Shown here: positions 16,335-60,472 of the stretch, piece after piece
Layout: each line of letters opens with the position of its first letter
Position numbering within the stretch: position 1 is the first letter of the stretch
Virus record (IMG/VR): IMGVR_UViG_3300004686_000002
Location: 1-64,000 of that record
Origin: an uncultured virus (IMG/VR IMGVR_UViG_3300004686_000002)
Taxonomy: Duplodnaviria; Heunggongvirae; Uroviricota; Caudoviricetes
Length of the DNA stretch: 64,000 bases
Reading direction: 5' to 3' (one strand)
Notes under the pieces: model-generated
Told to the model about the DNA's origin: nothing
Databases searched by the model: none
The model's input: only the letters and a program-made list of their open reading frames with translations
Made by a program: the position numbers and the translations under genes

Positions 16335-17069
16335 CTATCTGTGGATAGGAAATTGTATGTGTCTCAATTCTCCTGTTTTAAGAGTTCTATCTATACAGGC
16401 CCTGCATCTGCTACAGGCACCATAGTCTTTTGTACTCTTTAACTGCTTTGCTACAGCGGGGCATGTTAGGAATTTTCTGTCATTTATTTTGTCCTCGGGG
16501 AAGTTATCTCCCATCCAGGCAATAGCCACATTAGGATAATTTCTATACGGCTCATATGCCTCTAACACAGCATCTATGTTAACTGGGTCACAGCTAATAT
16601 AGATAGACATGTTTTTTACCTCAGCCAGGATAGGTATTGCAAATAAGGATCTGGTATATCCCCAGAATCTTACTAGCGGCCATTCCTCCATAACATGGGC
16701 CCAAGCTCTTGCATATTCCTCATTGAAGAAATCCCCACCCATGTGTAGGCGGAAATACTGCTTCATGAATCCTCCGTTAAGAAGAAACTTCAACAATGTA
16801 TTTCTAAGGATTTCAACCTTTAGTGAGTAATCTGCGTTGAGTAACATGAAAGTATTGTAATCTTCTGTCTTCTTGTAGTTTTTGTATATCCTGCTTGTGG
16901 TGCAGGCATAACAAACATCCAAGCAACCCTCTTTACCCTTGGTCGCTCCTGGACAGGTACCACCTTCATTAATCTCTCCTGTTTTTAACCCAAAAGTATT
17001 CTTATGCTCTTTAAAGAATCTTGTTTTCCTGTTTTCTGATAACTTTAAACTTAGTAAGCTTTTAGCCAT
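16335..17069 (-). CDS. Gp88-like Cys-rich (radical-SAM-like) phage protein
   Basis: TCPGA....C...CYA, FRLHMGGDFF, FWGYTR, TCPA, CSRCRAC; TAATG-coupled start. Confidence 0.75.
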   Translation of the reverse strand: MAKSLLSLKLSENRKTRFFKEHKNTFGLKTGEINEGGTCPGATKGKEGCLDVCYACTTSRIYKNYKKTEDYNTFMLLNADYSLKVEILRNTLLKFLLNGGFMKQYFRLHMGGDFFNEEYARAWAHVMEEWPLVRFWGYTRSLFAIPILAEVKNMSIYISCDPVNIDAVLEAYEPYRNYPNVAIAWMGDNFPEDKINDRKFLTCPAVAKQLKSTKDYGACSRCRACIDRTLKTGELRHIQFPIHR

Positions 17070-37641: not shown

Positions 37642-37714
37642 TGGCAGGGCCGGGGATCGAACCCGGGATCTCGTGATTATGAGCCACGCGACTTAACCGC
37701 TTGTCCACCCTGCG
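37642..37714 (-). tRNA. tRNA-Met(CAT), initiator type
   Basis: Cloverleaf; C1xC72 mismatch, A11-U24, loop CTCATAA; CCA not encoded. Confidence 0.9.
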
Positions 37715-37743
37715 TTAATTCAAGTTCAGATAAGATATCAATG

Positions 37744-37749
37744 ATTATA
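37744..37749 (-). promoter_or_regulatory. -10 box for the tRNA-Met unit
   Basis: TATAAT about 30 nt upstream of the tRNA. Confidence 0.5.
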
Positions 37750-37768
37750 CTCTTTTGCAAGAGATGGA

Positions 37769-38260
37769 TTAATTATTTTGCTGCGGAGGTGGTTCCTCCA
37801 TAGTGAAATACTCTTTACCCTGATTATAAATCATTTGTACCGCGGCATGCACTCTTTCTGTGGTCTCTATAGGTATATTTGTCCAGCTGTCAAAATTAAT
37901 CCTATCACAAGTCCACTGGCTCCTGTGTATGGTTGTATTTTTGTAATATAACTTACAAGAAGAGCTGGACCATAAATGCCAAGGATTTTCGTCATTATAT
38001 GCTCCGGGATTATGGAACGGGTTTTCCAACAGAGACCAAATTACGCAAAATACCTTGTAATAGGTTTTAAGCCATAACTGAGGCCTGGCTATAATTATGG
38101 TGTTATAGCCTTCGGCTCTGCAGTTGATGAGTATATCTTTTAAGTCTGTGTTCCTCCAATCCAATAAATCCACAGGAGGTTCTATCCGCCTTGCATGTCT
38201 ACCTTTCTCCCAAAATACTTTAACTACAGGTTGCATATTTATATCTCCCAGAACCCCCAC
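37769..38260 (-). CDS. Hypothetical protein
   Basis: ORF; start uncertain. Confidence 0.55.
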   Translation of the reverse strand: MGVLGDINMQPVVKVFWEKGRHARRIEPPVDLLDWRNTDLKDILINCRAEGYNTIIIARPQLWLKTYYKVFCVIWSLLENPFHNPGAYNDENPWHLWSSSSCKLYYKNTTIHRSQWTCDRINFDSWTNIPIETTERVHAAVQMIYNQGKEYFTMEEPPPQQNN

Positions 38261-38734
38261 TCTACTGGAGGTAGGGTTTGTTCATATTTGAATGGTTGTA
38301 ATTTTGAGCCGTCAGGATACTTTCCTGATTTTAAAATTTCGGCAGCTTTGTCTTTAGCTTCCCATGGGGCATCTGCTTCCACAGGTATTATCAAGCTATA
38401 TATCTTCTTTATTTTTACTTCATATTTCATTTGCTTTGCCCATCGAAGGGTGAGGCGTAGTTCCATGAAGGCTGTGGGCTAACCCTGAAAAACAGGGCGT
38501 ACCAAGGAATAGTTGCATCTTTTTTAACTTTATCCAAATAACTTACATATGCCCAAATAACACAAATAGAAAACAATATCATAAATGTTACATTAACTCT
38601 ACCTGTATAGCTTCTAAATAATAATTTTGTTCTGTGGTTTACTTTCATTTTGTGTGGGTGTGTAAAATAAAAAACCTCCCTTGGTGCGCATCGTTGAGAG
38701 GCGTGGGAGGTATTGTTTATTTTATTTTTATTTA

Positions 38735-39787
38735 TTATACGGGTCTAACTCCCGAAATTTCTTCGAATAACTTAATGTCTGACCTAGGCATGGTGGGGAA
38801 AACCTCAGCCAGTTTCACTGAGTCCGTAGGATCCAGATCAAAACCAAAAGCTTCCTCATACTTATCCTTACCAACTTTCTGCAAGTCATCTACTAAATAC
38901 TTATCTCCGTGAGCTTCTATAAAGTTAAGATCTTCTGCGACCTTATCTATGCTCTTGGTGAATATCATGTCCACAGGATCTTTTAAAATCTGGGCAATCT
39001 TGACGTTATCATATAACCCTTCCATGTTTTCCACATGGAAAAGAGTTTCAGCCAGCTTCATAACCTCTTCCACAGAAGAGATATTCTCTACGTCTTCTGC
39101 GAGCTTTTCATACATTTCTTTATGTTCTGCCTGCTTAAGCTTTGTGCTTCTTCTCCACACCTCGGTCTTTAAGCCGCCGAAGTCAGGATAAAAATAACCA
39201 GCATATTTCAAGAGAAGGTCAGGAATGTCGTCCACGGATAAATCCTTGGCGATCTTAATAGCCTGTTCGGCCATCTTGGTTCTCCATGCGAATGGATATT
39301 GATGCATGTGTCCCACAATATGCTCAACATTTTCCCTCAGGTCTGCGGCAGTTTTAACAGGATAAAGATTTAGAACATTGCCGTCAGCCAATTCAAATTG
39401 GCCGAGGTATTGTTCGGGGTAATCAGAGTTGGCCTGCTTAACAAACTCTTGAGAGTAATTAGAGATATCCTCAGAAATCTCAAAGATTTCGGCGGCTTCT
39501 TTAATTTTGTTTTCTAGTTGACTAGTATAACCTTCGCCGTATATTTTCTGTATATCGGCCTTCTTACTAATAAAATATGCATTGCTTACAAAAGTACGCG
39601 CAGGAGTGTTCAGGGGATAAATCCTTCTCGTTTCATCTGCAAACGCCTCTTTTGGAAGACCTTGAAGTGTGTCATAGTCGTCCACAGATGCGGTTTTCAC
39701 ATATGCAGGCAAATCAGAAACACGTAAGAGCTTATAAAGATCTTTATTTGAATAATCTGTAGACTGGTCGAAGTTGAATGAACTCAT
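38735..39787 (-). CDS. Probable virion/head-assembly protein rich in K-x-A motifs
   Basis: 350-aa helical protein with 15 KxA tripeptides; function is inferred. Confidence 0.6.
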   Translation of the reverse strand: MSSFNFDQSTDYSNKDLYKLLRVSDLPAYVKTASVDDYDTLQGLPKEAFADETRRIYPLNTPARTFVSNAYFISKKADIQKIYGEGYTSQLENKIKEAAEIFEISEDISNYSQEFVKQANSDYPEQYLGQFELADGNVLNLYPVKTAADLRENVEHIVGHMHQYPFAWRTKMAEQAIKIAKDLSVDDIPDLLLKYAGYFYPDFGGLKTEVWRRSTKLKQAEHKEMYEKLAEDVENISSVEEVMKLAETLFHVENMEGLYDNVKIAQILKDPVDMIFTKSIDKVAEDLNFIEAHGDKYLVDDLQKVGKDKYEEAFGFDLDPTDSVKLAEVFPTMPRSDIKLFEEISGVRPV

Positions 39788-39811
39788 AATTTATATTTAC
39801 CTTATTTTAAC

Positions 39812-41095
39812 ATGAATATCAATGATTTTAATAGCAAAATTAATCTACCCAGACTAGTCTCTAAATTGGGACTAAGAGAAGAAGATTTTGATTTTGTAAG
39901 AATACCAGTGTTTGGTTGGTTTGCAAGGTCTAAAACCTCTTCGTTTGTGGGTACTGTGTTTGATTTTTTTGAAGCTAATGACTGGCCAAAATTATACACC
40001 ACTGTATTAGATAATTTTGATGACTGCTTGGATTTCAAGCTTCCTAGATCTGAGTATGCAGAGAAAAAGTTATGGAGTAACTATTACCTACATGCTCAGT
40101 ATCAAGGTGCCTGGTTGTTGTCAAAAGAGGAGGCTGTATCTCACAGAGCCAGGCACGGAGATAAAGTTATGTATTTCAAGGATATCCTCACAGTGGCAGG
40201 TATGCCTGGATTTCTGGAAAACGAGATTGGTTATCTTACCGAAAACGTTGTAAAAGCATTTCCTAAATTAAATCTCGGACCAAAACAGAAGTATAAGAAG
40301 GTATTAATGATTCCTACTTTTGTTTCACCTAAACACATATGCTCTATAGAAATTGCTAAGTTTCAGACACCCCAAGAAAGAGAAAAAATATACATGAACG
40401 GTGAAATGGGATGGTATGGTAAGCTCTGTGATACCGTACTAGCTGATTTCAATGATCTAAAAATTAAGAAGGGCTTTACATGGAATTACAAAGCAGACTG
40501 GTGGACAAATCAAAACATAGATTTGCCTCCTGAAATAGATACTTCTAGTTTGATAAGGATTTGGAGCGAAGCCAGGAGGTCTGAATTTAACATAGATCCT
40601 ATGGATCTTTTGATTGGTAAAGAGGGCACTCCTAACCTGCATCACCATGTGGCTAGCTTATCATATGAGCAAGTCAAAGAATTAGGTGAAAGATCTGGAG
40701 AAGACTTGATGCGCTCTTGGAGAGAATCCAGAGAGCAGCAATTCACCGTGCAGGGTAAAACATTCGTGCGTAGGGGTACTTCTTATTTCTTGGTTAAAGA
40801 GCGTGAGGAGGAACAGCTTACAAACTTTGCATTAGAGGTAAAAGAGATACGTAAAAAAACGGAGAACAATGAAGACTCTTTTTACTGGCATGGATTCATT
40901 CATCACGGAAACAGTGTTGTTCCTTTTGAGATGAATGATAAGTTTTTTAACAGCTCTCACCTATTCTCCAAAGGAATAAGAAAGCAATTTATGAGTCTTG
41001 GTTTAGGTATTCCGTTTATAAATGAAAGGTATGTGAGGCAGGTATTGAACATGATTCAATTAACTGCGTATAAAGTACCTATAATATCGGAATAG
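39812..41095 (+). CDS. Hypothetical protein
   Basis: 427-aa ORF, divergent from 38735..39787; no recognised motif. Confidence 0.7.
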   Translation: MNINDFNSKINLPRLVSKLGLREEDFDFVRIPVFGWFARSKTSSFVGTVFDFFEANDWPKLYTTVLDNFDDCLDFKLPRSEYAEKKLWSNYYLHAQYQGAWLLSKEEAVSHRARHGDKVMYFKDILTVAGMPGFLENEIGYLTENVVKAFPKLNLGPKQKYKKVLMIPTFVSPKHICSIEIAKFQTPQEREKIYMNGEMGWYGKLCDTVLADFNDLKIKKGFTWNYKADWWTNQNIDLPPEIDTSSLIRIWSEARRSEFNIDPMDLLIGKEGTPNLHHHVASLSYEQVKELGERSGEDLMRSWRESREQQFTVQGKTFVRRGTSYFLVKEREEEQLTNFALEVKEIRKKTENNEDSFYWHGFIHHGNSVVPFEMNDKFFNSSHLFSKGIRKQFMSLGLGIPFINERYVRQVLNMIQLTAYKVPIISE

Positions 41096-41147
41096 GCTGC
41101 CCTCCCTGGATAGAGAGACAGAGAGAGCAGCCCGCACCGAACTGAAA

Positions 41148-41522
41148 CTACCACCAAGAATCGTAATAAACCTTCTTACCGTTTCGTATAGCGGTCCTGG
41201 CTTTTTCTATAAACGCAAGGTCTTCTGAATTAGAGTCTTCGTCTGGAGGATTATTTCCAAAGAAAAAACCTCTAGTTTGCGGCAAATGTGAACTTTCTAT
41301 AGCGCAATGAAGGTTATTTAAATCTTCCTCTGTTAATTGAACTGGGGTGCAGTTGAATTGACCTGTACCACCTTTACTGATATAGAGCTTCTGCATCCAA
41401 CCGTGCAGATCGTGATGCTTTCTCCAATATTGAATTTCTACCGCCTCTGCTCCCTTCGGTATACTGAGAGCTGTTGCCATTGGATGATCTTCCACGGCGT
41501 ATGCGTACATGTCTAATCCCAT
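41148..41522 (-). CDS. Conserved phage hypothetical protein
   Basis: MGLDMY, YWRK...LHGW, GFFFG, YYDSWW. Confidence 0.75.
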   Translation of the reverse strand: MGLDMYAYAVEDHPMATALSIPKGAEAVEIQYWRKHHDLHGWMQKLYISKGGTGQFNCTPVQLTEEDLNNLHCAIESSHLPQTRGFFFGNNPPDEDSNSEDLAFIEKARTAIRNGKKVYYDSWW

Positions 41523-41680
41523 ATGTGTGTTAGTTTGTTGTTTTTTTAGTTGCTAGGAATACTTTACCTAGGAGTGTTTCCTCTGTGGCTTTTGCCCCGA
41601 ATCGCACTGCGGCTCCTGCTTCTTTTATTAGGCTTTCTGAATGCTCTTTGGATAATATAGCTCTACCCACAACCAACCGG

Positions 41681-41899
41681 TCAAATTTTGGTAAGTACAG
41701 TACTCTCATCTTTCTTTTTAGTGGGACGATAATACATTTTCATATAACCACTGATCAACATATCCTTATCAAAACTAAGGTTTTTGAACTCCGCTATATC
41801 TTCTTCTGCTTTCTTCTTACAGTACTTCAGGCATTCGGCCTCTGACATACTCTCCGTAGCCTTATAATGATCTACTTTTGTTTCTTTTTGCTTTGCCAT
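41681..41899 (-). CDS. Hypothetical protein
   Basis: ACACACA leader. Confidence 0.55.
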   Translation of the reverse strand: MAKQKETKVDHYKATESMSEAECLKYCKKKAEEDIAEFKNLSFDKDMLISGYMKMYYRPTKKKDESTVLTKI

Positions 41900-41914
41900 T
41901 GTGTGTTGAATATA

Positions 41915-41997
41915 TGGGCAGAGAAGGATTCGAACCTTCGAAGTCTAATGACAGAGGATTTACAGTCCTCCCCGTTTGGCCGCTTCGGTATCTACCC
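41915..41997 (-). tRNA. tRNA-Tyr(GTA)
   Basis: Cloverleaf with long variable arm; loop CTGTAAA; GGTTCGAATCC. Confidence 0.95.
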
Positions 41998-42006
41998 ATT
42001 TTAAAG

Positions 42007-42081
42007 TGGTGCACGATGAGGGGATCGAACCCCCGACCTTGCCCGTGTAAAGGGCCTGCTCTACCGCTAAGCTAATCGTGC
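42007..42081 (-). tRNA. tRNA-Val(TAC)
   Basis: Cloverleaf; loop TTTACAC; CCA encoded. Confidence 0.95.
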
Positions 42082-42087
42082 TTGAAT

Positions 42088-42528
42088 TTACTTATTGTTA
42101 ACCTTTTTTAACTCAGGTTCAATTACTTTATATCCTAAAGACGTAAGAATTTTCTTACTGGTTTGGATTTTTTCCTGGATTAGTTTGGCTGAAAGCTTTT
42201 CGATTTCTTTGAGGGTCGTTTTTGCCTCTTTCCAATCCAGGTCGTTCACATAATAATAAAAATCTGAACCTAACTCAGCAAGTTTGTCATCCACGGGCTC
42301 ACCATCAAAATCTCTATCAAGAATGCTGCATTGGTTTCCGCAGGCGCAGGTAACCCAATCACCTGCCATCTTTATTTCTTTTTTAAATTTCTTTCTCGTG
42401 TTGATAATATCTTTGTCTGGCATATTATCAACGGATGTAACGCCTTTGGGCTGCTCTTTGATACGTTCTGCTAGAAAGCTGAACCAATCAAACTTTTTTT
42501 TATCTTTAGTTTCTGTGTATGTTTTCAT
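42088..42528 (-). CDS. Hypothetical protein
   Basis: WVTCACG motif; CACACAA leader. Confidence 0.65.
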   Translation of the reverse strand: MKTYTETKDKKKFDWFSFLAERIKEQPKGVTSVDNMPDKDIINTRKKFKKEIKMAGDWVTCACGNQCSILDRDFDGEPVDDKLAELGSDFYYYVNDLDWKEAKTTLKEIEKLSAKLIQEKIQTSKKILTSLGYKVIEPELKKVNNK

Positions 42529-42615
42529 TTGTGTGATAAGTTGTGCAGGGTTTATTTTTATACTCGTTGGCCATACTCCTGCTTATGCCCTTCAGTTATG
42601 AGCGACATAACAAAA

Positions 42616-42686
42616 CTACCCCTCATGGATTCGAACCATGACAAAGAGAGCCAAAATCTCTTGTGCTACCGTTACACCAAAGGGTA
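42616..42686 (-). tRNA. tRNA-Gln(TTG)
   Basis: Cloverleaf; U1-A72; loop TTTTGGC. Confidence 0.93.
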
Positions 42687-42695
42687 ATAAATCTA

Positions 42696-42770
42696 TCGGG
42701 GTGGCCGGATTCGAACCGACGACATCTTGCTCCCAAAGCAAGCGCTCTAGCCAAGCTGAGCTACACCCCG
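42696..42770 (-). tRNA. tRNA-Pro(TGG)
   Basis: Cloverleaf CGGGGTG...CACCCCG-A; loop TTTGGGA. Confidence 0.95.
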
Positions 42771-45192: not shown

Positions 45193-45211
45193 CTGATTTT
45201 CATCAGTAGAT

Positions 45212-45646
45212 TGGTGGAGGCGACGGGATTCGAACCCGTGTGTTCCAGAAATATCTAACAACCGTTTACATGCTTAGCTCAGCCTATTTCATCTGTACCA
45301 GTACGCTGAGCGGATACAGATGGATCTTCAACTTAACGCGAATTGAGTCGTATCTAAATTATACCCTCACAAGATAATTGAGGTACCCTTTTGTATCTCT
45401 CCGGCATCGGGCGTCCAGAGAGCGTTTTACTACTAGCGGCTTCAAGCCGCTGCGGTTAGGCAGCGAGAAGCTCGCTGTCAGCGTAGCCATACTTTGCAAG
45501 AATGGCATCCGCCTCAGCGAGGCTAGGAGCAAGCATCTCGTTAGAGTTTGCTTTTATTTTTTTCCCAGATGATTATAGAGGCCAACTGAGATCCTCTGCA
45601 TGTAGGCTGATATCAACTCCTGGAGTCGATTTCCAATTACGCCCCC
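45212..45646 (-). ncRNA. ssrA: tmRNA (435 nt)
   Basis: 5' GGGGGCG...TCGAC, 3' GGGTTCGAATCCC-GTCGCCTCCACCA with G3.U alanine identity; tag ORF 45551-45456 ending LAA*. Confidence 0.95.
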
Positions 45647-45669
45647 AAATGTTACAAAAGCTTATTCAA

Positions 45670-46443
45670 TTACTTTATCAGTGTAAAGCAAAAGCTGCCC
45701 TCTGGAACAAGATGGTTTTCATCTCTTCCCGGACTGTAATATATATGTGGTTTTGAGGGGAGTAGAACTTTTCCGAATTTCTTACCAAGCTGTAAGATAG
45801 TTTCCATAATGCCGATAGCATAAGGATGAACTTCATCAGATTTGGTATTACTGCTGTATCTGTTCCACAGCATGTCATCATCAAAATAAAGTAAATCTGA
45901 ATATTTTGATGCTCTGCCTATCTCTAGGGTTTCTTCTCTGATATCCCTCAATCCACGTCCAAGCAGGAATGTAAAAATAATATTACCCAAGGGCTTTATC
46001 ATTTTTTTATCCTCTAGCATGTGTGAGATATACTCTATTATATTTCTGTTAAAGGTACCCATGAAATCACCGTAGATTATATCAAATTCAGCTGTTGAGC
46101 TATCAAACAAGCTGGAATTAAATTTCCTGGTGACTACATCTTCCCATGATGTTTTTTGGTCTAGTAGATCAATCTGGTTTCTTTTATTCTTGTGATTGAG
46201 CTTTAGAAAATTTCTTGAAGATTCATTCACATAAGGATCAGATTCAACACCAACAATATTGAACTTATTTTCAGGGAAATTTTGAATTAACTGCCGCTCC
46301 CATAGCCATTTTTCACCAGGCAGAGAGAGTATGTTGATATCTTCTCTATAACGCAACAGCTTCTTTAGCTCTTTGTTTAGGTAGATGTCGTTGTCTCGTT
46401 TTTCTTTACGTGCTGACCAATCTATCCTGCGTACGTTTTTCAC
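45670..46443 (-). CDS. Putative class I SAM-dependent methyltransferase-like protein
   Basis: ILSLPG...IVGVE...FDIIYGDFMG strand pattern; GTG start behind an A/C-rich leader. Confidence 0.5.
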   Translation of the reverse strand: MKNVRRIDWSARKEKRDNDIYLNKELKKLLRYREDINILSLPGEKWLWERQLIQNFPENKFNIVGVESDPYVNESSRNFLKLNHKNKRNQIDLLDQKTSWEDVVTRKFNSSLFDSSTAEFDIIYGDFMGTFNRNIIEYISHMLEDKKMIKPLGNIIFTFLLGRGLRDIREETLEIGRASKYSDLLYFDDDMLWNRYSSNTKSDEVHPYAIGIMETILQLGKKFGKVLLPSKPHIYYSPGRDENHLVPEGSFCFTLIK

Positions 46444-46481
46444 TTTTTGGTTTTGGTTGGTTGTTTGGTTTCAGGGGTTAA

Positions 46482-46598
46482 AAAATAACTCTGTGTGATC
46501 ATCACCGTGATCTGTAAAAATAACACCCAGCATTAGGTTGTTTATCTTTACAGAGCGTGTTATGGGAATTACCCATACTCTACTCACAGAATTATTTT
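46482..46598 (-). ncRNA. Candidate structured RNA or leader (117 nt)
   Basis: 14-bp closing stem (G.U on the minus strand) plus internal hairpins. Confidence 0.55.
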
Positions 46599-46608
46599 AA
46601 AAGGTTTA

Positions 46609-46780
46609 GGCGCGTTCCTACCACGATGTCTGCAAACCTCGTGGTGAGGCGAATGATTTGTTCACGGTGGTTGCAGTATCCGTGAGATTGTCATTTAGTG
46701 TGGGGGTTGTGCCACACCAGTTTCCACCAATAAGTTGGAAACCCTTTCAATAAACTCGTCAGTTTATTCCTTGCTGCGCC
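46609..46780 (-). ncRNA. Candidate five-hairpin RNA with kissing loops (172 nt)
   Basis: GGCGC/GCGCC closing stem, five hairpins, complementary loops CTGCAA/TTGCAG. Confidence 0.65.
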
Positions 46781-46786
46781 ATTTTT

Positions 46787-46880
46787 TGCTCTCTGCTTTT
46801 CAGGCGGCCATGATTCCACCTCTTCCCGACTTGAGACGGTTTACGACTCTGGTTATAGTCCAGACTAATCGCAAGTAGCA
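46787..46880 (-). ncRNA. Candidate structured RNA (about 94 nt)
   Basis: TGCT/AGCA, ACTTG/CAAGT, TCTGG/CCAGA and AGGTGG/CCGCCT stems. Confidence 0.4.
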
Positions 46881-46888
46881 TTACAAAA

Positions 46889-47016
46889 ATAGATGGATCT
46901 GTGTGCCCGTTTGCTATGTGTCTCTATGCGGTGCTCGGCCGAGCAGAGCGCCATTGTACACACAATATCAGCCGTGGACCTTTAGCTAATTAGCGGACAC
47001 ACAGATCCGAATCTAT
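46889..47016 (-). ncRNA. Candidate structured RNA (about 128 nt)
   Basis: 15-bp closing stem GGATCTGTGTGTCCG/CGGGCACACAGATCC plus inner hairpin TGCTCGGCCGAGCA. Confidence 0.6.
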
Positions 47017-47056
47017 AAACTAAAAAATATAGCCTAACAAATCTTGTTATCAATTT

Positions 47057-47064
47057 ATTATACC
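47057..47064 (-). promoter_or_regulatory. -10 box (GGTATAAT) heading the RNA island
   Basis: About 40 nt upstream of the first structured element. Confidence 0.5.
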
Positions 47065-47190
47065 TGAAAAGTTAAGCTATATTATGGGGGGGTTATTTAT
47101 TTCCTGTCAGTGAATTAATTGCTAATCCTGAAATAATCAGGAGAACAAATGATGTAGCCACTAGGCAGAGAAGGTCTTCTTTTTTTCTGG

Positions 47191-47475
47191 TCATACTCCG
47201 TTAAGTAATTGGTTTAATCTTGCTATTTCTTTTTTGTCTTTTTTTCTTAAACAAAAAATGTCGTCCACCGAAACGTAAGTGTCGTCACTATTTTGAATTT
47301 TAACGATCTTCGTATCACTCTCTAGTACCTCTATTTTAGCCTTTGCTTGTTCGAGAGCCTGGGTGAGTTCGCCTATCGTATTCGTTAGTTGTACCGCAAT
47401 ATTCTCGTGTATATCAAGCCTAGTTTTAAGATTTTTATTTTCCTCTATAAGTTTATCAACTATTTCGTGACTCAT
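47191..47475 (-). CDS. Coiled-coil hypothetical protein
   Basis: Heptad pattern. Confidence 0.55.
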   Translation of the reverse strand: MSHEIVDKLIEENKNLKTRLDIHENIAVQLTNTIGELTQALEQAKAKIEVLESDTKIVKIQNSDDTYVSVDDIFCLRKKDKKEIARLNQLLNGV

Positions 47476-52135: not shown

Positions 52136-55100
52136 TTAATAATTGCGACCAATTAACTGAAGTGTGGTGGTAGCTGGGATAATATTATAGTCAGTGCTGT
52201 TGCTAGGATAGAAAGTAGCTGACCAAGTATAGCTACCTCCGTAATCATACTCCGCATAATCTGGGGCATAAATGAATGTACCAGGAACAGAAGCAGTGGC
52301 TCCATAAGCCCCCGTAAACCAGGGAACACCTACGTGAGTTATTTGTGGCCAAGTAATTACCGGATCTTGTTTGGGTATACCTAGCGTAATATATATTACC
52401 TGTGCGCTGTATACCAAATTATCGGGAGATATAGATATCGAGAAAAGTCTATCTATATCATTACTGCTTGGGTTGCCAACTATGTTTCCATTTGCACTTA
52501 TCGATAATCCTTCAGGCAACCCTATTGCCTGAAATCCAAATGGAGGATTATCTGTGGTTATTGAAATTAATGGATTATCGTCTGTGTATGGTCCTGAATT
52601 TAAATAAACAGAAGGCATAATAGTGTATACATTCACATATACAGGGAAAGAATAATTTAGGCCCGGAGGTTTTACATAACTAACCTGACTTGTTTGGCTA
52701 AGGACTGGAATATTTACTGCTACCCCTGTTATGGTTACTAAGTTTGTTGTTGCTGGCACTACATTTATATGCACGGTTTTCGTGACGGGTATAAAATCAC
52801 TTGAGTTTGGCGTGAAAGTGACGTGTAGCGGAATATTTGTACCAACCATTAAAATTGTTCCTGGGACGGGATCATATACGTATTTACCCAAAACGTCAGT
52901 TGTGGCATTCAACTGGGCTCCAGGAATTAACTGTGTTTTATAAACTATATCTGCAGGATTATCCCAATTAAGTTGTGGTATGCCTTTCTGAATACTCAGT
53001 ACAAAATGGAATGCGCTTGATAATGTCCCATTATTATTAGCATATACAGTGACATTATAAATCGCGTTTAACTGACTAGCTACAGGGGTACCTATAATAT
53101 TTCCGTTGGTGTTTATAGATAGGGTATTTGGTAAACCTTGAGCGATGAAACCGGAAGCCAAGACATCCGTGTTTACTGTAAGTAGCGGATTATTGTCTGT
53201 GTATGGCCCCGCAGCCAGATAAACAGAAGGCAAGAAATTATAATATGTACCTGTTGAGCCTGTTGAACCGGTATGTGATTGATATATAGCTTGAGTTGTA
53301 GAAATTCCTGTTATTGCTATCGGGCCCCCTGCTGGGTTTACATTTATATTTACTGATGCCTCGGCTGTGTAATAGTCTACAGACGTAGGGGTAAATACAG
53401 TATTCAATGTGTTATGGATATGATTTAATACTGTCCCTGAGGCTGGAGAATATGTAAAAGTTCCGTCTACGTTTGAAGAGGCATTTAATTGGTCTGTACT
53501 CAAGGGAGTACCATAAGTTATTGGATTCGGAGAAGACCAAGTTAATACTGGGTGATTTTTCGGGGTTAAATCTAAAACAAAATTATAAGGAGGAGACTTC
53601 AAATAAAATGACCTTGGGCGATTATTTTGGTAATTATCATTACCTTGAGCGTATAGAGATATATAATATACCTTATTCAAATCTTGCGTACTTGGTGTAC
53701 CTATGATATTTCCTAGTCCTCCCACAGTTAAAGAAGAAGGTAGTCCTGTTGCGCTGTATGTATATACAGTAGAAGCAGCACCAAAAGAAAACAACGGGTT
53801 GCCTCCTGTGTAAGGTCCATTGTTTAAGTATTCAGAAGGATTAGGACTATATACAGGCCCGGAGGGTCCTGTGGCTGCAGAATAATATGAATTTAAAAAG
53901 CTTGCTGGGGTAAATGAAGTGATTTTATTAATCAATACAGTTAAATTGTTTGTAACTGTAGCTGAACCATAGTCTTCACTGTCTGGGGTAAATACTGCTG
54001 TTATGGTGTTATTGCCTACGTTGAATACTGTGCCGTAATCCGGGGTATATGTGAAAGATCCCGCCACGTCAGCTGTTGCGTTTAATTGCACTTCGGTTAT
54101 AGGTGTACCATAAACCACAGGATCTAGTGCAGGCCATGTAATATTGGTGGGTATTGGTTGTATAGATAGCGTAAAATTGAATGGAGGGGGATCGTTATAA
54201 TGAGCACCGGATTGTGGATAATAAACAACAGTATTAACTAAATTTATAGTAACGTTGTATGTTTGGTTTATTTCTGAAATCTGCGGATAGCTACCAACAA
54301 TCTTTCCAGTATTAGTTATTGTTAAAGAATTTGGTAGTCCTGTGGCAGTAAAAATATAACCACCAAAGTTGTGATAATCCGCAAGCGAAATTAAAGTATT
54401 TACAGTAAATAAGGGGTTATCTTCTGTATATGACGAGTTTAAATAAACAGAAGGTAATATGTTATATGAAGGACCTGAACCTCCAGTAGCTCCTGTACTA
54501 GACTCAAAAGTTTGGTCTGAAGATAACCCTGTTATGAGGTTAGGCGTAATAACAAGAGATACAGATTTTGTGGAGCCTGCTACATTTATATCTGACGATA
54601 CGTATTCCGCGGTTAGAATGTTTGTTCCTACGTTCAATACATCTCCTAATTGATAATTATAAAGTAATACTCCACCCTCGGTGTATATATCAAACGATGC
54701 ATTTAATTGCTGGTCTGTTAACGGGGTACCATAAATTATAGGATCTGGGGTGTCCCAAAATACATGTGACTTTCTTGGTTCAAATGCCAGTATGCAATTG
54801 TATGGGGGAGATTGGTTTCCTAAAGAATCCACAGCAGTTATAGACAACCCATAGCTCTTGTTTAGCATATTAGGTAAAACTGTTCCAATTAAGGCTCCAC
54901 TGTTATCTATTGTTAGTAGTGGGGGAAGCCCAGGGTAATATGGAGGAGTTAGTGTGATTGGTAAATCCGGCCATGCAGGGCCTGATGAGCCTGATGAGCC
55001 TGTAGGACCTGGAAATGTTGTGGAATATAAAGATATTTCCCAGCTAGAAAATGTTCCACCATTACCCCCAACACTGCTAACTGATATCGTCATACGGTTT

Positions 55101-58100
55101 CCGCTATAAATAGCAGATATTGTTCCTATCATATAGCTGAGGTTTATTCCTCCTGTGTTTGTAACCATGACACTATCCCCAGCCGCAAAAGATCCTATAG
55201 TATTAACAGTAAATGTTCTTGTCCCTGTGCCTACTTGTATTGTTGTGTTTGAAGTAACTCCGAAATACCCTAAGTTGGATTGAGAGGCTCCTGTTGGGCC
55301 TGTGCCTGCTGTAAAGCCAGCGATAGCAAATTTTGTGGTTGGATTAGCGGAGGATACTAAAGCTAACGGGCTAAGGTCTGAAAATTGCTTATATAAAACG
55401 AAGCTAGGATAAAAATTGTATATGGGTGGATTTATATTTGACGCGGGGTAAAAATCAACAGTTACGTCTGGAAATAACCCATATATCAAATTTGATAATA
55501 CAGTAACTTGATTTGTTTTTTGTGTGGGTAGATAATCTAAACTTGTAGGATTGTAATAGGCGGTTAGTGTGTCAACACCTATTGGAGGTAGGTATCCCGC
55601 CGGGGGAGAATATGTTATATTCCCAGAAGCTTGGGTGGTCGCATTTAACTGAAACTCATTAAGTCGCTGACCATAAACCATTGTGTCTGGTGTGGGCCAA
55701 TCTATCGTCGCATGTACGGCACTAAAAGATAATACGAAAGTAAATATATTAGAGCTACCTGCAGGGTTCGAAACTCTCGCGGATATGGTGTAATGTAAAT
55801 TTATATCATCGTACGAAGGATAGCCCACTAAATTTCCGTTGGGATTAAAGTGCAGACTAGTAAAGTGTCTGGGTGTAATGCTCGTTATCTCAATACTTGT
55901 TGGATCGTTTGTTACAGATAAACTTAACAAAGGATTATCATCAGTATACTCTCCCGGCCCCAGATAAACAGAAGGTAGGAAATTATAAGATGGTCCCGTA
56001 TTCCCTGTGGCTCCTGTATAAGATTCGTATGTTTGATTTGTTGAAATTCCTGTTATGCTGGGCAGTCCCCAATATTGAATATCGTATTGATTATTAGAAG
56101 CGCCTCCTAAATATTGATTTTCAATCACAACAGAAAATACACCTGAAGAATTAGTGCTTGCGGGAGTGCCTGTGAAATTGCAGTTAAATCCAGGAAAACC
56201 ATTGTAAGAAACACCGTCGGGCCATGTACCGCTAATATTGTAGAATATGGCGTTATCTGCGGAGGTTATTTTTTTACAGACTGTATGATTCTCAAGCATC
56301 ACAATAGATTGATCTGCAGTATCAGAAACCACTATTGAGCAAGTACCTGTACCATAGTAGCCATATTCAGATTCTACCGAAATGGTCACATTGTATGTTC
56401 CTGTTTGGCTAACCGGTCCTCCCACAATTTGTCCCGACTCTGGAACTATACTTAAAGAAGGAGGTAACCCTACAGCAGAAAATAGTATCGGATTTTGAGT
56501 AGCATAAACACTAAACAATGGGGAGTCTGTGGTGTATTCTCTATTGTTGTAGTCTGGAGGATTAATATAGTAAATATTTTGGCTTAATGGTGTAGTTATT
56601 TGGGGTGTGGGTGAATTAGGTAAATAATTTAAGTTTAAAGAAAGGGGCATTTGTGTGCTTCCTTTATTTGCAAACAAAGTTAATGGGTAATTTGCCGCAT
56701 GGGTTAATCCACTAACGGTACCATAAATATTGCAGGTTGCTCCTGTAGCCCCAGTAAAATGAAGTCCAGGAGGTAATGGGCCAGTATAACCATAACTGTC
56801 GGCTTGTCCTAATCCTGATATCTTATAACAGTAGGGGGTATTTAAAAACACACCACCATTCAACGGAGAAGAAGAAATATATATTTTAAACGAAGATATA
56901 TATCTAGCTCCTGAGGAAGTACCTGCGATAACCTGCACATTATACGTACCCTCAACATCGTTAGCTGCACCTATAACTTTTCCGTCTTGTGTTATACTCA
57001 AGCCCCTAGGTAATCCAGAGGCTAAATAAAAGCTTATAGGTCTAGCTGTGAGTATTTGTAATAGTGGTGCGTCAGCATTAAAAGTTATCGTGCTATAGCC
57101 ACCAGAATAGACTATATAAAATAATTGATCTTGAGCTGGATAAGTTATTTGTAGTGACGGAGAATATATAAAATTAAAAAATCTATTGGTTATTAAACCG
57201 GCATTATTTATGGATAATGTGATATATTGTTGAATTTCATTAGTCTGATTAAGAATTCCTGAAGAATAGATGTGGCAAGAGCTATTTGCCTGACTAGAAA
57301 TATTTAAAAATGAAGGTAAATTTAATATGGAGAAAGACACATTTAAACTAGCACCTAAGGAGCTTAAATCACTAAAAGTGTAGCAAAATCCTGTTCCATA
57401 ATCCGCAATGATTTCAGATATTTCTTGAGATAGGTTGATATTAAAAGTAACTGACGTAGTACCTACAGCATTAACTGCGTTTATTGTAACTACATGGAGA
57501 CCTAGACTTGCATCATCTGAAATCTGCCCAGTAATATTTCCATTGTTATCTATGCTTAACCCTAGGGGAAGTGTTCCGTTATTGTCATTAAATGAAGTTG
57601 CCCCTAACGCAGAAACTGTAAATAGTGGATTTACTGAAGTAAATTGTGTATTGCTACCTATCGGGTTTTTAAAGTCCGGCGGATATAGATTAATAACAGT
57701 GGAATTAGTGGGGTAATTTATTATAGGTGTAACGATATAAGGTATCGTATATGACACAAGCCTGTAACTTCCACCATAAAGCTGTTGCTTAACAACAATA
57801 TTTATTTCCGTTGAGGTGGTGTCATAATTCGTACCATAAAAATTAGGTACAGCTCCCGCAGAAGAGTGATTGAGGGTAGGATCAAAAAGTAACCAGTCTG
57901 GTAAAATTTGTTCTACTGTTTGCGATATTACTTCAGGGCCAACGATTATACTGTAATTAAACTGTTCTCCCTGTTTTGCATACGATGTAGCTATGCCAGT
58001 CTCGTTTATCTCTAATAATACATGTACAGGAGAAGAGCTGCCGGCGGAATTGTGGGCTACCAAAGTCAAAGGATAAAAAGCAGGGTATACGGTATTGCTA

Positions 58101-60472
58101 GGCATCTTGAGCTTACCTATCAGCCCGTTGCCCCCCACGGATAATCCTGGAGGAAGATTGTTTGTACCTGTAGGCCCTATACTTACACCACTTAAATTAT
58201 TGTCTAAAGTTATACTATAACTGGTAGGATAATTCGATGCAGCTATGGGAATGAGGGGGGCACTCTTTGTAAAAGTTCTAGTGGTTAAAACCTGAGGGCC
58301 TCCGTCAGGAGGATAAATATTTATAACCTCGTTTTGTGTTGGATAATTAATTACCGGAGGAGCAAAATAGTCTATGGTTAACTGAAGGAAGTAATAAAGT
58401 GATCCGGATTTTCCAAAAACTGTAAAAGAATATACTTCTGAAGTATTTCCGTTCGGATTTGAAGAATAAATTCTAGGAGAATTTGAGGATGTATCTATTG
58501 TTATCCAGCTTGGTGGAGTACCTGTAACTGTAAATTCTGTAGCCTCCGGCATGTTTATAGGGTAGCTAAACGGTACACCGTAGTTCACAGAAATTACATC
58601 TTGAGTATTATTGACAGAAACACAATATGCTGCCGTTATGGTTGCTCCTGGCTCTGGTATAGTCATTGGCGTTTGAACCGCATCAATAAGAACGCCATTT
58701 GAATAGTAATTTATAGGTGTGTTACTTGGAGTAGATGTGTTTGTTATTTCAAATGTAACTTTCCCTGTATTCAAATGATCTATATCCTGTGAGCAAGGAA
58801 TGAAATATATGGATTCAAATATATTGTAATCCTTGCAGGCGATTGTTCCTACACTTGCCCCATAGCTAATATCGCCTATACTATTTTTTATCTTTACAGA
58901 AGAAGGAACGAGTGTGGCTTGGTCTGAGGTGAATGCGGATACAGAATATGAAATAGCTGCTGGTGACGGATTGTATATAACAATTACCGAAGTTATGAAT
59001 GTACCATACTGCTTGTCAGCATTATAGGCTTCTAGTGTGCCGTAGTTTAAAGTTGCGTATGGCTGATTTTTATTAGCGGCGGCGGCGTTACTTCTAGTAA
59101 TTGCGTCATTCAGTGCGTTTTTTATACCGTAGTCGTTAACGATAAAGTTATTTAAGTTTCCAGATAGGGCTGCGCATATATCATTAAAAGCTATATTTGA
59201 TTGCGTGGTAACCCCAAGTATAACTTCATGGGTGGAAATAACTTCTTTTATTTGAAAAACATAATTAATGGCCCCAGAGGTTATTGTTAATTCTCTTCCC
59301 TCATGGAAATACTTTTTAAACCCTCCTGAACACGTAGGTCCAACTGGTGTAGGTTTGCCATTTCTATACGCGCAAAAACTGGTTACTACAAAATGTGCGC
59401 TATTTATTAATCCAGTAGAATTATTTTCCGCGAAGGCAGATCCATTTATTTTTCCTATTCCATAAGTCTGTTGGGGATTATTAACTACCTTGTAAAGTTC
59501 TGCTAAGGCATCTGTGGATCTATTGAGATAATTTGCAAAACCACTTATATTTTCAGGAGAGCATTTGGGACTGCAGTGATTGTTAAATACAAGTCCGTGC
59601 CCTCCCATATCAGAGGATATGGCATTGAAGGTATTGGTGTGTGCTGCTACACCATTTCTAGCAGGGATAGGTGTGGAGAAATTTGAATAATCAGTCTTTG
59701 TTTTTAGCTCTCCTGATGTGATCTCATTAAGGGTGTTGGCACTCAAAAGGTCTAACGAATAGCAGTCGGATGGAGCTATAAACAAAGCCCCGGAAGAATT
59801 AGGGGAGCTGTTATTAACTGTATATATGTCTACTATGTCTCCGTCAGGGCAGGGGTTCCATAATCCCGTACCTAATCCTTTAGCTACATCTATATATAAT
59901 TGATGTGTGCTATCAGTGGTAAATTCATTATTTGTTCCATTGTCTAAAATGACAGCTTCTCCAGCCCCGTAAGTTTTTATGTTTTGTAATATATGGCTGG
60001 CGGTGTATCCGTCATGGGCATATGTATCAAAGCTAAGCGAAGTTACTTTTCTGGGATACCACACTATCAAGGAAGATAAAAATTCTGTTTGATCTGCTGT
60101 ATATTCTACTGTACCGGAAAAGCTAGATAAAAAATTTATCTCATCGCCAAATATTAATTTGATCACCCAGCCATCACCAGAATAGCTAAAAAAGCTTGTT
60201 TGCGTATTTGCTAAATGACTAATCGCAGAACTTAAAGGAAAACTTAAAGAGCCTATATCACCATTATTAACTTCTGATAAGGCTATATTTATATCTCCAT
60301 CAATGTTAGAGATACTAGAGATATATACTCTTTTTATATTTTTATCGTTAGTTACAAACAGCGCGTCTAAAAAAGCCCCTTTAGGAATATCTAAAGACTG
60401 ATTGGGGGCAACACTATCTTTAAAAGGATAGCTGATCAGGCTATTTGAACTTAAATATTCTAACGCGGGCAT
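52136..60472 (-). CDS. Giant repeat-rich tail fibre/adhesin (2778 aa) with putative Ig-like domains
   Basis: A.GLP..L.I...G.I.G repeats, W..P..I.YG..L...QLNA repeats, short Gly-X-Y linkers. Confidence 0.8.
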   Translation of the reverse strand: MPALEYLSSNSLISYPFKDSVAPNQSLDIPKGAFLDALFVTNDKNIKRVYISSISNIDGDINIALSEVNNGDIGSLSFPLSSAISHLANTQTSFFSYSGDGWVIKLIFGDEINFLSSFSGTVEYTADQTEFLSSLIVWYPRKVTSLSFDTYAHDGYTASHILQNIKTYGAGEAVILDNGTNNEFTTDSTHQLYIDVAKGLGTGLWNPCPDGDIVDIYTVNNSSPNSSGALFIAPSDCYSLDLLSANTLNEITSGELKTKTDYSNFSTPIPARNGVAAHTNTFNAISSDMGGHGLVFNNHCSPKCSPENISGFANYLNRSTDALAELYKVVNNPQQTYGIGKINGSAFAENNSTGLINSAHFVVTSFCAYRNGKPTPVGPTCSGGFKKYFHEGRELTITSGAINYVFQIKEVISTHEVILGVTTQSNIAFNDICAALSGNLNNFIVNDYGIKNALNDAITRSNAAAANKNQPYATLNYGTLEAYNADKQYGTFITSVIVIYNPSPAAISYSVSAFTSDQATLVPSSVKIKNSIGDISYGASVGTIACKDYNIFESIYFIPCSQDIDHLNTGKVTFEITNTSTPSNTPINYYSNGVLIDAVQTPMTIPEPGATITAAYCVSVNNTQDVISVNYGVPFSYPINMPEATEFTVTGTPPSWITIDTSSNSPRIYSSNPNGNTSEVYSFTVFGKSGSLYYFLQLTIDYFAPPVINYPTQNEVINIYPPDGGPQVLTTRTFTKSAPLIPIAASNYPTSYSITLDNNLSGVSIGPTGTNNLPPGLSVGGNGLIGKLKMPSNTVYPAFYPLTLVAHNSAGSSSPVHVLLEINETGIATSYAKQGEQFNYSIIVGPEVISQTVEQILPDWLLFDPTLNHSSAGAVPNFYGTNYDTTSTEINIVVKQQLYGGSYRLVSYTIPYIVTPIINYPTNSTVINLYPPDFKNPIGSNTQFTSVNPLFTVSALGATSFNDNNGTLPLGLSIDNNGNITGQISDDASLGLHVVTINAVNAVGTTSVTFNINLSQEISEIIADYGTGFCYTFSDLSSLGASLNVSFSILNLPSFLNISSQANSSCHIYSSGILNQTNEIQQYITLSINNAGLITNRFFNFIYSPSLQITYPAQDQLFYIVYSGGYSTITFNADAPLLQILTARPISFYLASGLPRGLSITQDGKVIGAANDVEGTYNVQVIAGTSSGARYISSFKIYISSSPLNGGVFLNTPYCYKISGLGQADSYGYTGPLPPGLHFTGATGATCNIYGTVSGLTHAANYPLTLFANKGSTQMPLSLNLNYLPNSPTPQITTPLSQNIYYINPPDYNNREYTTDSPLFSVYATQNPILFSAVGLPPSLSIVPESGQIVGGPVSQTGTYNVTISVESEYGYYGTGTCSIVVSDTADQSIVMLENHTVCKKITSADNAIFYNISGTWPDGVSYNGFPGFNCNFTGTPASTNSSGVFSVVIENQYLGGASNNQYDIQYWGLPSITGISTNQTYESYTGATGNTGPSYNFLPSVYLGPGEYTDDNPLLSLSVTNDPTSIEITSITPRHFTSLHFNPNGNLVGYPSYDDINLHYTISARVSNPAGSSNIFTFVLSFSAVHATIDWPTPDTMVYGQRLNEFQLNATTQASGNITYSPPAGYLPPIGVDTLTAYYNPTSLDYLPTQKTNQVTVLSNLIYGLFPDVTVDFYPASNINPPIYNFYPSFVLYKQFSDLSPLALVSSANPTTKFAIAGFTAGTGPTGASQSNLGYFGVTSNTTIQVGTGTRTFTVNTIGSFAAGDSVMVTNTGGINLSYMIGTISAIYSGNRMTISVSSVGGNGGTFSSWEISLYSTTFPGPTGSSGSSGPAWPDLPITLTPPYYPGLPPLLTIDNSGALIGTVLPNMLNKSYGLSITAVDSLGNQSPPYNCILAFEPRKSHVFWDTPDPIIYGTPLTDQQLNASFDIYTEGGVLLYNYQLGDVLNVGTNILTAEYVSSDINVAGSTKSVSLVITPNLITGLSSDQTFESSTGATGGSGPSYNILPSVYLNSSYTEDNPLFTVNTLISLADYHNFGGYIFTATGLPNSLTITNTGKIVGSYPQISEINQTYNVTINLVNTVVYYPQSGAHYNDPPPFNFTLSIQPIPTNITWPALDPVVYGTPITEVQLNATADVAGSFTYTPDYGTVFNVGNNTITAVFTPDSEDYGSATVTNNLTVLINKITSFTPASFLNSYYSAATGPSGPVYSPNPSEYLNNGPYTGGNPLFSFGAASTVYTYSATGLPSSLTVGGLGNIIGTPSTQDLNKVYYISLYAQGNDNYQNNRPRSFYLKSPPYNFVLDLTPKNHPVLTWSSPNPITYGTPLSTDQLNASSNVDGTFTYSPASGTVLNHIHNTLNTVFTPTSVDYYTAEASVNINVNPAGGPIAITGISTTQAIYQSHTGSTGSTGTYYNFLPSVYLAAGPYTDNNPLLTVNTDVLASGFIAQGLPNTLSINTNGNIIGTPVASQLNAIYNVTVYANNNGTLSSAFHFVLSIQKGIPQLNWDNPADIVYKTQLIPGAQLNATTDVLGKYVYDPVPGTILMVGTNIPLHVTFTPNSSDFIPVTKTVHINVVPATTNLVTITGVAVNIPVLSQTSQVSYVKPPGLNYSFPVYVNVYTIMPSVYLNSGPYTDDNPLISITTDNPPFGFQAIGLPEGLSISANGNIVGNPSSNDIDRLFSISISPDNLVYSAQVIYITLGIPKQDPVITWPQITHVGVPWFTGAYGATASVPGTFIYAPDYAEYDYGGSYTWSATFYPSNSTDYNIIPATTTLQLIGRNY

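Follow-up and report, generated by a model that had tools for sequence, protein, structure and literature searches.

The minus strand of the window, meaning here the whole stretch of 64,000 nucleotides that was analysed (positions 1 to 64,000 of an IMG/VR virus record of 131,625 bases with an estimated completeness of 67%), carries a multi-hairpin junction RNA at 46609-46780. It is very probable that this RNA belongs to a real, conserved and structured non-coding RNA family, which Rfam does not contain and whose 5' boundary is occupied by a self-cleaving ribozyme. As predicted from sequence, the family is defined by a closing stem (P1), the hairpins H1 and H3, the hairpin H4 with a 5x5 internal loop and the loop motif CUGCAA, the hairpin H5 with the loop motif UUGCAG, and an abutting ribozyme, and these features were found in six of six sequences. 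The family itself is undescribed, while its kind, a ribozyme-matured structured phage RNA, is a known one. For the whole explanation, in which the junction RNA would be a stand-alone small RNA of uncultivated freshwater phages with a ribozyme-made 5' end and an intramolecular kiss between two of its loops, the chances seem to us about even. The sequencing runs that contain the stretch are labelled as freshwater or lake metagenomes.

Fold and conservation of the junction RNA

The junction RNA consists of the closing stem P1 (GGCGC/GCGCC) and, in the window, five hairpins, H1 to H5, among which H2 (GTTTCCA/TGGAAAC) occurs in the window lineage only, and H4 is composed of an outer stem, the conserved 5x5 internal loop and an inner stem. 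The minus strand of 46780-46609 folds with -60.9 kcal/mol, compared to a mean of -42.1 kcal/mol in 200 dinucleotide shuffles (z -4.73), and none of the 200 shuffles folded as well. The plus strand of the same segment was also stable (z -3.9), as expected of a mirror image. The initial annotation had named six stems in this segment and described them as a six-way junction. All six stems were found on the minus strand, identical to those of the MFE and centroid structures. The six-way junction holds for the window, but the family is a five-way junction, since H2 is confined to the window lineage. The Rfam scan that had also been suggested was run, and neither pRNA nor any other family matched the junction RNA in the gathering scan of the 64 kb or in the searches of 46300-47300 and 46485-46785 at E values up to 10. 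For 46485-46785, the rows at E values up to 10 were only chance-level miRNA or CRISPR-repeat rows. The junction RNA is not in Rfam 15, and lists of ribozyme-associated motifs beyond Rfam may contain it.

The family as analysed here comprises six distinct sequences from about four lineages of syntenic phages, namely the window and the relatives L004, L005, L006, L129 and L131. L004 to L006 were retrieved by the flanking 94-aa protein (about 62% identity), and L129 by a profile of the 257-aa protein (33% identity). L131 was added by a DNA pattern in a scan of viral sequences (6 stretches), and independently by a pattern for domain 2, the RNA module that follows the junction RNA; the scan of viral sequences with this second pattern gave the same 6 contigs. 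The relatives were obtained independently of the loops discussed below, since flanking proteins led to four of the five, and the remaining one was reached by the domain-2 pattern as well. Wider searches brought back what was already known. The metagenome scan gave 22 stretches, of which 4 were real, every one identical to a known sequence, and the scan of the genome collection gave 27 stretches and no real one. A viral pattern scan gave at least 119 stretches, and nhmmer over 125 loci picked out known contigs only among them, and blastn of cultured phages with 46400-47200 and the tmRNA found no match. A viral pattern that fixed only the ends and left the loops free gave 15 stretches. Five of these came from known contigs, and the other 10 were unrelated, GC-rich sequences, which were rejected because their fold differs from that of the junction RNA. 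With the H4 internal loop as the only pattern, 23 viral stretches were obtained, 6 of them known, and nhmmer gave otherwise one chance-level row (E 0.019). The six sequences are related, so all counts across them refer to non-independent events.

When folded singly, all six sequences gave the same plan of P1, H1, H3, H4 and H5, with L129 as the smallest form (150 nt). In a hand-made structural table, which was fitted to the structure, 242 of 253 cells held standard pairs and 17 of 44 pair positions (39%) had double compensatory changes. In the unedited MAFFT alignment, from which H1 was dropped because its register was misaligned, 95.2% of the cells were standard pairs and 7 of 29 pairs were compensatory; none of 500 shuffles reached either figure, and slid registers were 31-45% paired. 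The sequence of H1 is entirely different in three lineages, and still 7-8 pairs form every time; moreover, compensatory changes were seen in every variable helix. Two runs also contain environmental strain variants with both 46716 A>G and 46699 T>C, by which the U65-A82 pair of H3 becomes C65-G82. P1, the base of H4 including the 5x5 internal loop and the three-pair base of H5 are invariant, and so are the junction strands GCAGCAA.., UGACAAYCUCA, GUGAACAAAYCA, CGCCU and AGGAAC. Thus, the core is strongly conserved and the peripheral stems vary freely, in phages whose flanking proteins are only 33-62% identical. Because it is conserved in six sequences, the structure goes beyond chance.

The junction RNA lies inside a segment of 747 bases (46444-47190) without a conserved ORF. 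ORFs of 42 and 40 aa overlap it; the matching strand of L004 at 3289-3986 holds no ORF of at least 60 aa, and the indels in the alignment of the junction RNA are 1, 2, 3, 10 and 12 nt long. The strand is not settled by G-U counts (10 G-U cells versus 7 A-C cells in the hand-made table), and the minus strand was assigned because of the ribozymes, the promoter and the orientation of the genes.

Ribozymes and other modules around the junction RNA

A ribozyme, which was absent from the initial annotation, lies directly 5' of the closing stem. In all five relatives it is a pistol ribozyme above the Rfam gathering score of 34.5 bits (L004, 61.5; L005, 60.5; L006, 60.5; L129, 61.3; L131, 59.7). The last position of the pistol model coincides with the first G of P1 in each of them, at 3650 in L004, 3755 in L005, 3754 in L006, 725 in L129 and 1108 in L131. 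Rfam searches at E values up to 10 found no pistol in the window region and no twister in L005. The linker dinucleotide of the pistol is G|A in the Rfam alignment of the relatives, and the cut presumably falls within it. With the cut about 4 nt before P1, the pistol would be left on the leader. According to Harris et al. (PMC4604425), the nucleophile of pistol is a guanosine 2'-OH, and pistol RNAs are commonly phage-associated.

The window has a twister-like ribozyme at the same place (46781-46890, minus strand), of type P1 with P3 and P5 (Rfam twister-P1). The twister-P1 match at 46887-46785 scored 29.6 bits against a gathering score of 67.2, with an E value of 4.3e-4 in a 1-kb search, and it is not reported in the 64-kb gathering scan. 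Its helices are made of standard pairs throughout (P1 6 bp, P2 4, P3 8+4, P4 3 and P5 5). Moreover, it has a U46883|A46882 A46881 site, an A-rich strand ahead of P2, and the loop L4 UCUCAAGU, which contains AAG. In the strands that we take to be the pseudoknot partners, PK1 is formed by CUC and GAG (CCC and GGG in the consensus) and PK2 by GU and AC (GC and GC in the consensus). Both pseudoknots are changed on both sides and yet paired, so these deviations from the consensus are compensated. Acceptance criteria for twister candidates, as given in PMC11662667, are the pseudoknot partners, the N|A site, a general-acid A and a general-base G in L4. We judge it likely, from these sequence features, that the window element is a true twister fold, with a predicted cut between U46883 and A46882. 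Since twisters of type P1 cleave at the 5' edge of the ribozyme itself, this one would stay attached to the junction RNA.

Two predicted ribozymes of unrelated classes are thus placed at one boundary of a conserved RNA, and the swap between them is a clean cassette between P1 and module A, a further structured module upstream. It can be argued from this that the cut itself was selected, and that the junction RNA is the thing freed. The score of the twister, far below its gathering score, speaks against maturation by a ribozyme in this phage. Retention of the twister and removal of the pistol would give different 5' ends, so a precise 5' end cannot be the whole point. The roles of ribozymes in bacteria and phages, including pistol and twister, which are both phage-associated classes, are largely unknown according to PMC6765202, and this locus gives a directly testable hypothesis for them.

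Two further modules with covarying stems flank the ribozyme and the junction RNA. Module A (46896-47007, minus strand) is a three-way junction upstream of the ribozyme, with a closing stem of 14 bp and a hairpin with the conserved loop AAAGGUCCAC. It is present in the window, L005, L006 and L131 and cleanly absent in L004 and L129, and 12 of its 39 predicted pairs are compensatory. In L004 to L006, an extra hairpin module of about 115 nt precedes the pistol. Domain 2 (46494-46588, minus strand) follows the junction RNA in six of six sequences and is a three-way junction closed by UGUGA/UCACA. It has the conserved junction strands GUAGAG and GGUGAUGA, which are invariant and purine-rich, and a GCUGG loop; RNAalifold gave 29 pairs, 10 of them compensatory. 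No Rfam family matched module A or domain 2 in the 64-kb gathering scan or in the searches at E values up to 10. By eye, readings of the two modules as a hammerhead, a K-turn or C/D box, or a loop E were tried and gave no consistent match. Within the virus record, there are no additional copies of the junction RNA, domain 2 or module A.

Upstream of module A, the 94-aa ORF (47191-47475, minus strand) is followed by a TATAAT box (47057-47062, minus strand) within the conserved box GGTATAAT at 47064-47057. The window, L129 and L131 share a conserved sequence resembling GGTATAATA(A/G)(A/G/T)TTGATAAC, and L005 has GGTATAAT. In L129, a terminator-like hairpin at 486-504 precedes the TATAAT box. Judged by its sequence and setting, TATAAT is likely the -10 element of a non-coding transcription unit.

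On the downstream side, a 257-aa ORF (45670-46443, minus strand) lies behind a CA-rich leader. It is interposed after the junction RNA and domain 2 in the window and in L004 to L006. The identity of this ORF is about 60% in L004 and L005 and about 33-34% in L129. It had no match among Pfam, PHROG and PDB sequences, and its Atlas model has TM scores of 0.56-0.61 to class I methyltransferases; on this model it probably has a class I SAM-methyltransferase-like fold, which is to be taken as a lead only. A phage tmRNA was identified at 45212-45646 on the minus strand (Rfam 98.9 bits, and ARAGORN), with five tRNAs beyond it on the same strand. In L004 the tmRNA comes after the 257-aa ORF. In L129 and L131 it lies just downstream of domain 2 with a promoter-like site of its own, and the homologue of the 257-aa ORF in L129 is about 930 nt beyond it. 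At the gathering score, Rfam found 1 further tRNA and no ribozyme in the rest of the virus record. The island is modular, with module A, domain 2 and a swappable ribozyme beside the tmRNA and tRNAs, and some large uncultivated phages thus carry a modular non-coding RNA island at this place. As tmRNA, tRNAs and a methyltransferase-like gene always accompany the junction RNA, it may belong to a module by which the phage takes over translation or RNA.

None of the runs that hold the stretch is on record as RNA. One run, X8, has the library label metatranscriptomic and the tool flag 'RNA? (probably DNA)', and two of its contigs fall on 45200-47200. The first covers part of a related tmRNA, with a word depth of 1712. 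The second is 256 nt long and lies wholly on 46607-46862, with a depth of 12.3, three differences and no loose ends. It spans part of the twister and the whole junction RNA and stops 2 nt past P1, and DNA contigs of other runs (records 5 and 9) continue across that end point. As a single contig of a single run, and since true ends cannot be read from contigs, it hints only weakly at a discrete RNA species made of twister and junction RNA. Run X8 has no contig over the flanking ORFs, an observation that we did not count as evidence.

Complementary loops and the proposed mechanism

The loops of the last two hairpins hold CUGCAA (H4, 46671-46676, minus strand) and UUGCAG (H5, 46630-46635, minus strand), which are perfect reverse complements with a hexamer duplex of -6.1 kcal/mol. 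The initial annotation had pointed to these loops as a kissing pair and had staked the idea on their conservation. The complementary sequences were confirmed by coordinates, and the conservation bears up, with one copy of each hexamer in six of six sequences, always within its hairpin loop and free of pairs in the predicted folds. When the two 12-nt loops of the window were shuffled with their composition preserved, 306 of 20000 trials (about 1.5%) reached a Watson-Crick run of 6 bp between them, and such complements were rarer still in shuffled loops of the relatives. On inspection of the folds, an alternative plain helix of the two hexamers, extending to at most 6 bp, was rejected.

The loops of H4 and H5 measure 12 and 12 nt in the window, 6 and 10 nt in L004 to L006, and 11 and 6 nt in L129 and L131. 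In every one of the six sequences, CUGCAA is nevertheless separated from the base of H4 by 19-21 nt on the 5' side and by 19-20 nt on the 3' side. For UUGCAG, the distances to the base of H5 are 14-15 nt and 13 nt, again in every sequence. More stem goes with less loop, so the hexamers keep a constant distance from the bases of their helices. The hexamers are 35-37 nt apart, and the linker between H4 and H5 has 2 nt only. Neither hexamer varies in the six sequences, so there is no compensatory change to score in the loops. Six unchanged loop pairs, compared with compensatory changes at 39% of the stem positions, are a hint of a constraint beyond complementarity, for example sequence-specific recognition. 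Invariant complementary loops at fixed positions make the RNA a good candidate for structural work, whether they serve as a clamp or in assembly.

In the mechanism that we propose, the unit would be transcribed from its own conserved TATAAT promoter, and the ribozyme would remove the leader and leave a 5'-hydroxyl. The cut would fall about 4 nt ahead of P1 in the pistol lineages and at U46883|A46882 in this phage, where the twister would be kept as a 5' domain. The 3' end may be trimmed to the closing stem, which would give a discrete, stable RNA with both ends paired. The internal loop of H4 would then bend, and the intramolecular kiss of H4 with H5 would fix the arms next to each other, as in the lysine riboswitch. 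Finally, the clamped arms may provide a rigid core that binds a protein or a small ligand. The intramolecular kiss that clamps H4 to H5 is our preferred reading of the loops; we hold it tentatively, by analogy, at close to or slightly below an even chance. It has to face two points, namely that H4 and H5, being 2 nt apart, could stack end to end and forbid the kiss, and that the hexamers are invariant, which leaves their pairing without support from covariation.

The short linker is one of the observations that would fit an RNA-only homo-oligomer, in which loop 4 pairs head to tail with loop 5 of the next molecule, to form dimers, closed rings or filaments, and the ribozyme releases uniform monomers. 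Here, the 2-nt linker would favour coaxial stacking, so that the loops point in opposite directions. In addition, each loop can pair over all 6 nt with the other but not with a second copy of itself, and both loops are invariant and rigidly placed. pRNA employs exactly such a pair of loops as described in PMC4201828, and a preprint (bioRxiv 10.64898/2026.07.01.735769) describes RNAs of less than 200 nt, some of them phage-associated motifs, that form cages, trimers and filaments. The kissing sequences of pRNA, however, vary among its members according to PMC4201828, while they are constant here; H4 has a conserved internal loop, which suits a bend that would permit an intramolecular contact; and the junction RNA is not a homologue of pRNA and comes from a phage of at least 131 kb. 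We consider the oligomer unlikely. If it were true, the RNA would be a natural self-assembling RNA of a large freshwater phage that is unrelated to pRNA, and the release of its subunits would be a first biological job for pistol and twister.

The full invariance of the hexamers, against 17 covarying stem positions of 44, is more than pairing requires, and it would be explained if the hexamers, instead of pairing with one another, were twin recognition sites, with a palindromic UGCA core, which bind a protein dimer or another nucleic acid and make the RNA a decoy or scaffold. The spacing of 35-37 nt and the fixed heights on both arms suit a bivalent binder. A perfect 6-nt complement is, however, found in only about 1.5% of the loop shuffles of the window and in fewer of those of the relatives, and no candidate binder was identified; the twin sites are quite unlikely in our view.

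Aptamers typically combine a conserved core with peripheral helices that vary, as is seen here, and plan and length resemble those of the lysine riboswitch. The RNA could thus be a cis-acting leader or riboswitch-like aptamer, whose core binds a ligand or factor and controls, through domain 2, the downstream methyltransferase-like ORF. In the window, L004, L005 and L006 the 257-aa ORF indeed has the junction RNA and domain 2 in its 5' region, but in L129 and L131 domain 2 is followed by a promoter-like site and the tmRNA and not by the ORF. A ribozyme ahead of an aptamer has no obvious regulatory logic, and no Rfam riboswitch matched. A minor point against it is that the contig of run X8 ends at P1, short of the ORF. 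These observations make the aptamer improbable. It is hardly credible that there is no functional RNA here and that hairpins, terminators or decayed sequence have come together by chance in a long intergenic region, as might be thought from the lack of a matching family and of an RNA run on record, because the covariation excludes chance, and a z score of -4.73, compensatory changes in every variable helix, conservation among phages with flanking proteins of only 33-62% identity and two ribozyme classes kept at the same boundary all stand against it.

Comparison with known systems

The initial annotation had likened the junction RNA to phi29 pRNA. The two mutually complementary loops bear this out, but there was no Rfam match to pRNA and the RNA is not a three-way junction. 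To our knowledge, no ribozyme flanks pRNA. Like the junction RNA, pRNA is phage-encoded, has a length in the same range (about 120-174 nt) and carries two complementary loops that are able to join molecules, as described in PMC4201828. pRNA is a three-way junction whose loops pair between molecules to build a ring at the portal of a small phage, whereas the junction RNA is a five-way junction, and a six-way junction in the window. The kissing sequences differ between the members of the pRNA group in PMC4201828, in contrast to the invariant 6-nt complementarity found here, and the phi29 genome has about 19 kb, compared with at least 131 kb for the present virus record. The junction RNA is therefore not a relative of pRNA, and the comparison with phi29 is an analogy only.

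The lysine riboswitch is a five-way junction of about 150-170 nt, in which the loops L2 and L3 of neighbouring hairpins kiss over 6 bp and one arm is bent. Its closing stem with four hairpins, its similar length and its complementary loops on neighbouring hairpins would make it the analogue of the arrangement proposed here. Unlike the lysine riboswitch, the junction RNA had no match in Rfam at E values up to 10, has no lysine-related gene downstream and has a ribozyme in front; what follows it is the methyltransferase-like ORF or, in two lineages, the tmRNA. GOLLD, ROOL and manA are likewise structured RNAs of phages or prophages near tRNAs, and some of them form RNA-only multimers through loop contacts, according to PMC12286853 and bioRxiv 10.64898/2026.07.01.735769. 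No sequence or structure match to these three was found in Rfam, and the junction RNA is much smaller than GOLLD and ROOL.

Our literature search found no pistol or twister abutting a conserved junction RNA in print, with the original paper on ribozyme contexts lying outside this search, and no report of a swap of ribozyme class at one boundary of a conserved RNA. In function, the nearest precedent is the arrangement of theta ribozymes and tRNAs in gut phages (PMC10879173). As far as that source describes them, theta ribozymes are HDV-like, their cut site is next to phage tRNAs, and a role in end maturation has been proposed for them. Both systems have a small self-cleaving ribozyme that cuts, or is predicted to cut, against the end of a structured non-coding RNA of a phage. 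The theta ribozymes of PMC10879173 act at the 3' ends of tRNAs, whereas here a pistol or twister is placed at the 5' end of a junction RNA that is not a tRNA. Furthermore, compared with the theta ribozymes as presented in PMC10879173, the present arrangement is set apart by a ribozyme class that differs among related phages.

Structured RNA modules around the ribozyme and junction RNA

Upstream of the predicted self-cleaving ribozyme, a conserved three-way-junction RNA, here called module A, was found on the minus strand at 46896-47007 of the window. The same module was present in three of the five related phage contigs carrying the junction RNA (L005:3462-3577, L006:3462-3577 and L131:915-1030), and it was cleanly absent from the other two, L004 and L129. 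Module A is closed by a stem of 14 bp, its hairpin loop AAAGGUCCAC was invariant in the four sequences, and 12 of the 39 pairs were compensatory. An Rfam search gave no match for it. Module A, which adjoins the ribozyme, is a candidate functional RNA in its own right.

A second three-way junction, domain 2, lies downstream of the junction RNA (46494-46588, minus strand), with equivalents in all five relatives. It is closed by UGUGA/UCACA, carries a GCUGG loop and is followed by a U-rich run. The strands GUAGAG and GGUGAUGA were invariant and possibly form tandem G-A pairs; compensatory changes were seen in 10 of 29 pairs.

The lineage of L004, L005 and L006, and no other, carries a further hairpin module, about 110 nt long. 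In L005 this module occupies 3578-3686, with module A on one side and the pistol ribozyme on the other, and its first bases resemble the 5' strand of the twister-like ribozyme of the window (UUUUUG.AA.GC). No Rfam match was obtained for the L005 copy at E values up to 10.

tRNA genes, an abiF motif and a large ORF

The minus strand at 37642-42770 carries tRNA genes for Met, Tyr, Val, Gln and Pro, five in all, with small ORFs interspersed among them. One additional tRNA was found beyond the window, at 120853-120933 of the whole virus record (G000), which corresponds to 16853-16933 of the stretch L209. An abiF RNA motif (38674-38710, minus strand), scoring 50 bits in Rfam, above the gathering score of 37, lies just 3' of a 350-aa ORF (38735-39787). 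The 2778-aa ORF at 52136-60472 (minus strand) matched no PHROG family at E values up to 1e-5.

The 257-aa protein gene and the tmRNA

The minus-strand ORF at 45670-46443 starts with GTG and encodes a 257-aa protein. In the CA-rich leader ahead of this ORF (ACCAAACAACCAACCAAAACCAAAAA), no Shine-Dalgarno motif was seen by eye. Sequence-family searches gave no match for the protein, and its predicted fold resembles class I SAM methyltransferases (TM 0.56-0.61), which we take as a lead only.

The phage-encoded tmRNA (45212-45646, minus strand; 98.9 bits) specifies an unusually long tag, ANSNEMLAPSLAEADAILAKYGYADSELLAA. A related tmRNA reached a word depth of 1712 in the sequencing run X8, whose library is labelled metatranscriptomic and was flagged as probably DNA. 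In L129, the roughly 930 bases from the tmRNA to the methyltransferase-like gene (1547-2476) contained no plus-strand ORF of at least 50 aa, and this stretch may be further non-coding RNA. Rfam also returned a weak "permuted tmRNA" row at L129:1516-1691 (32.9 bits, below threshold).
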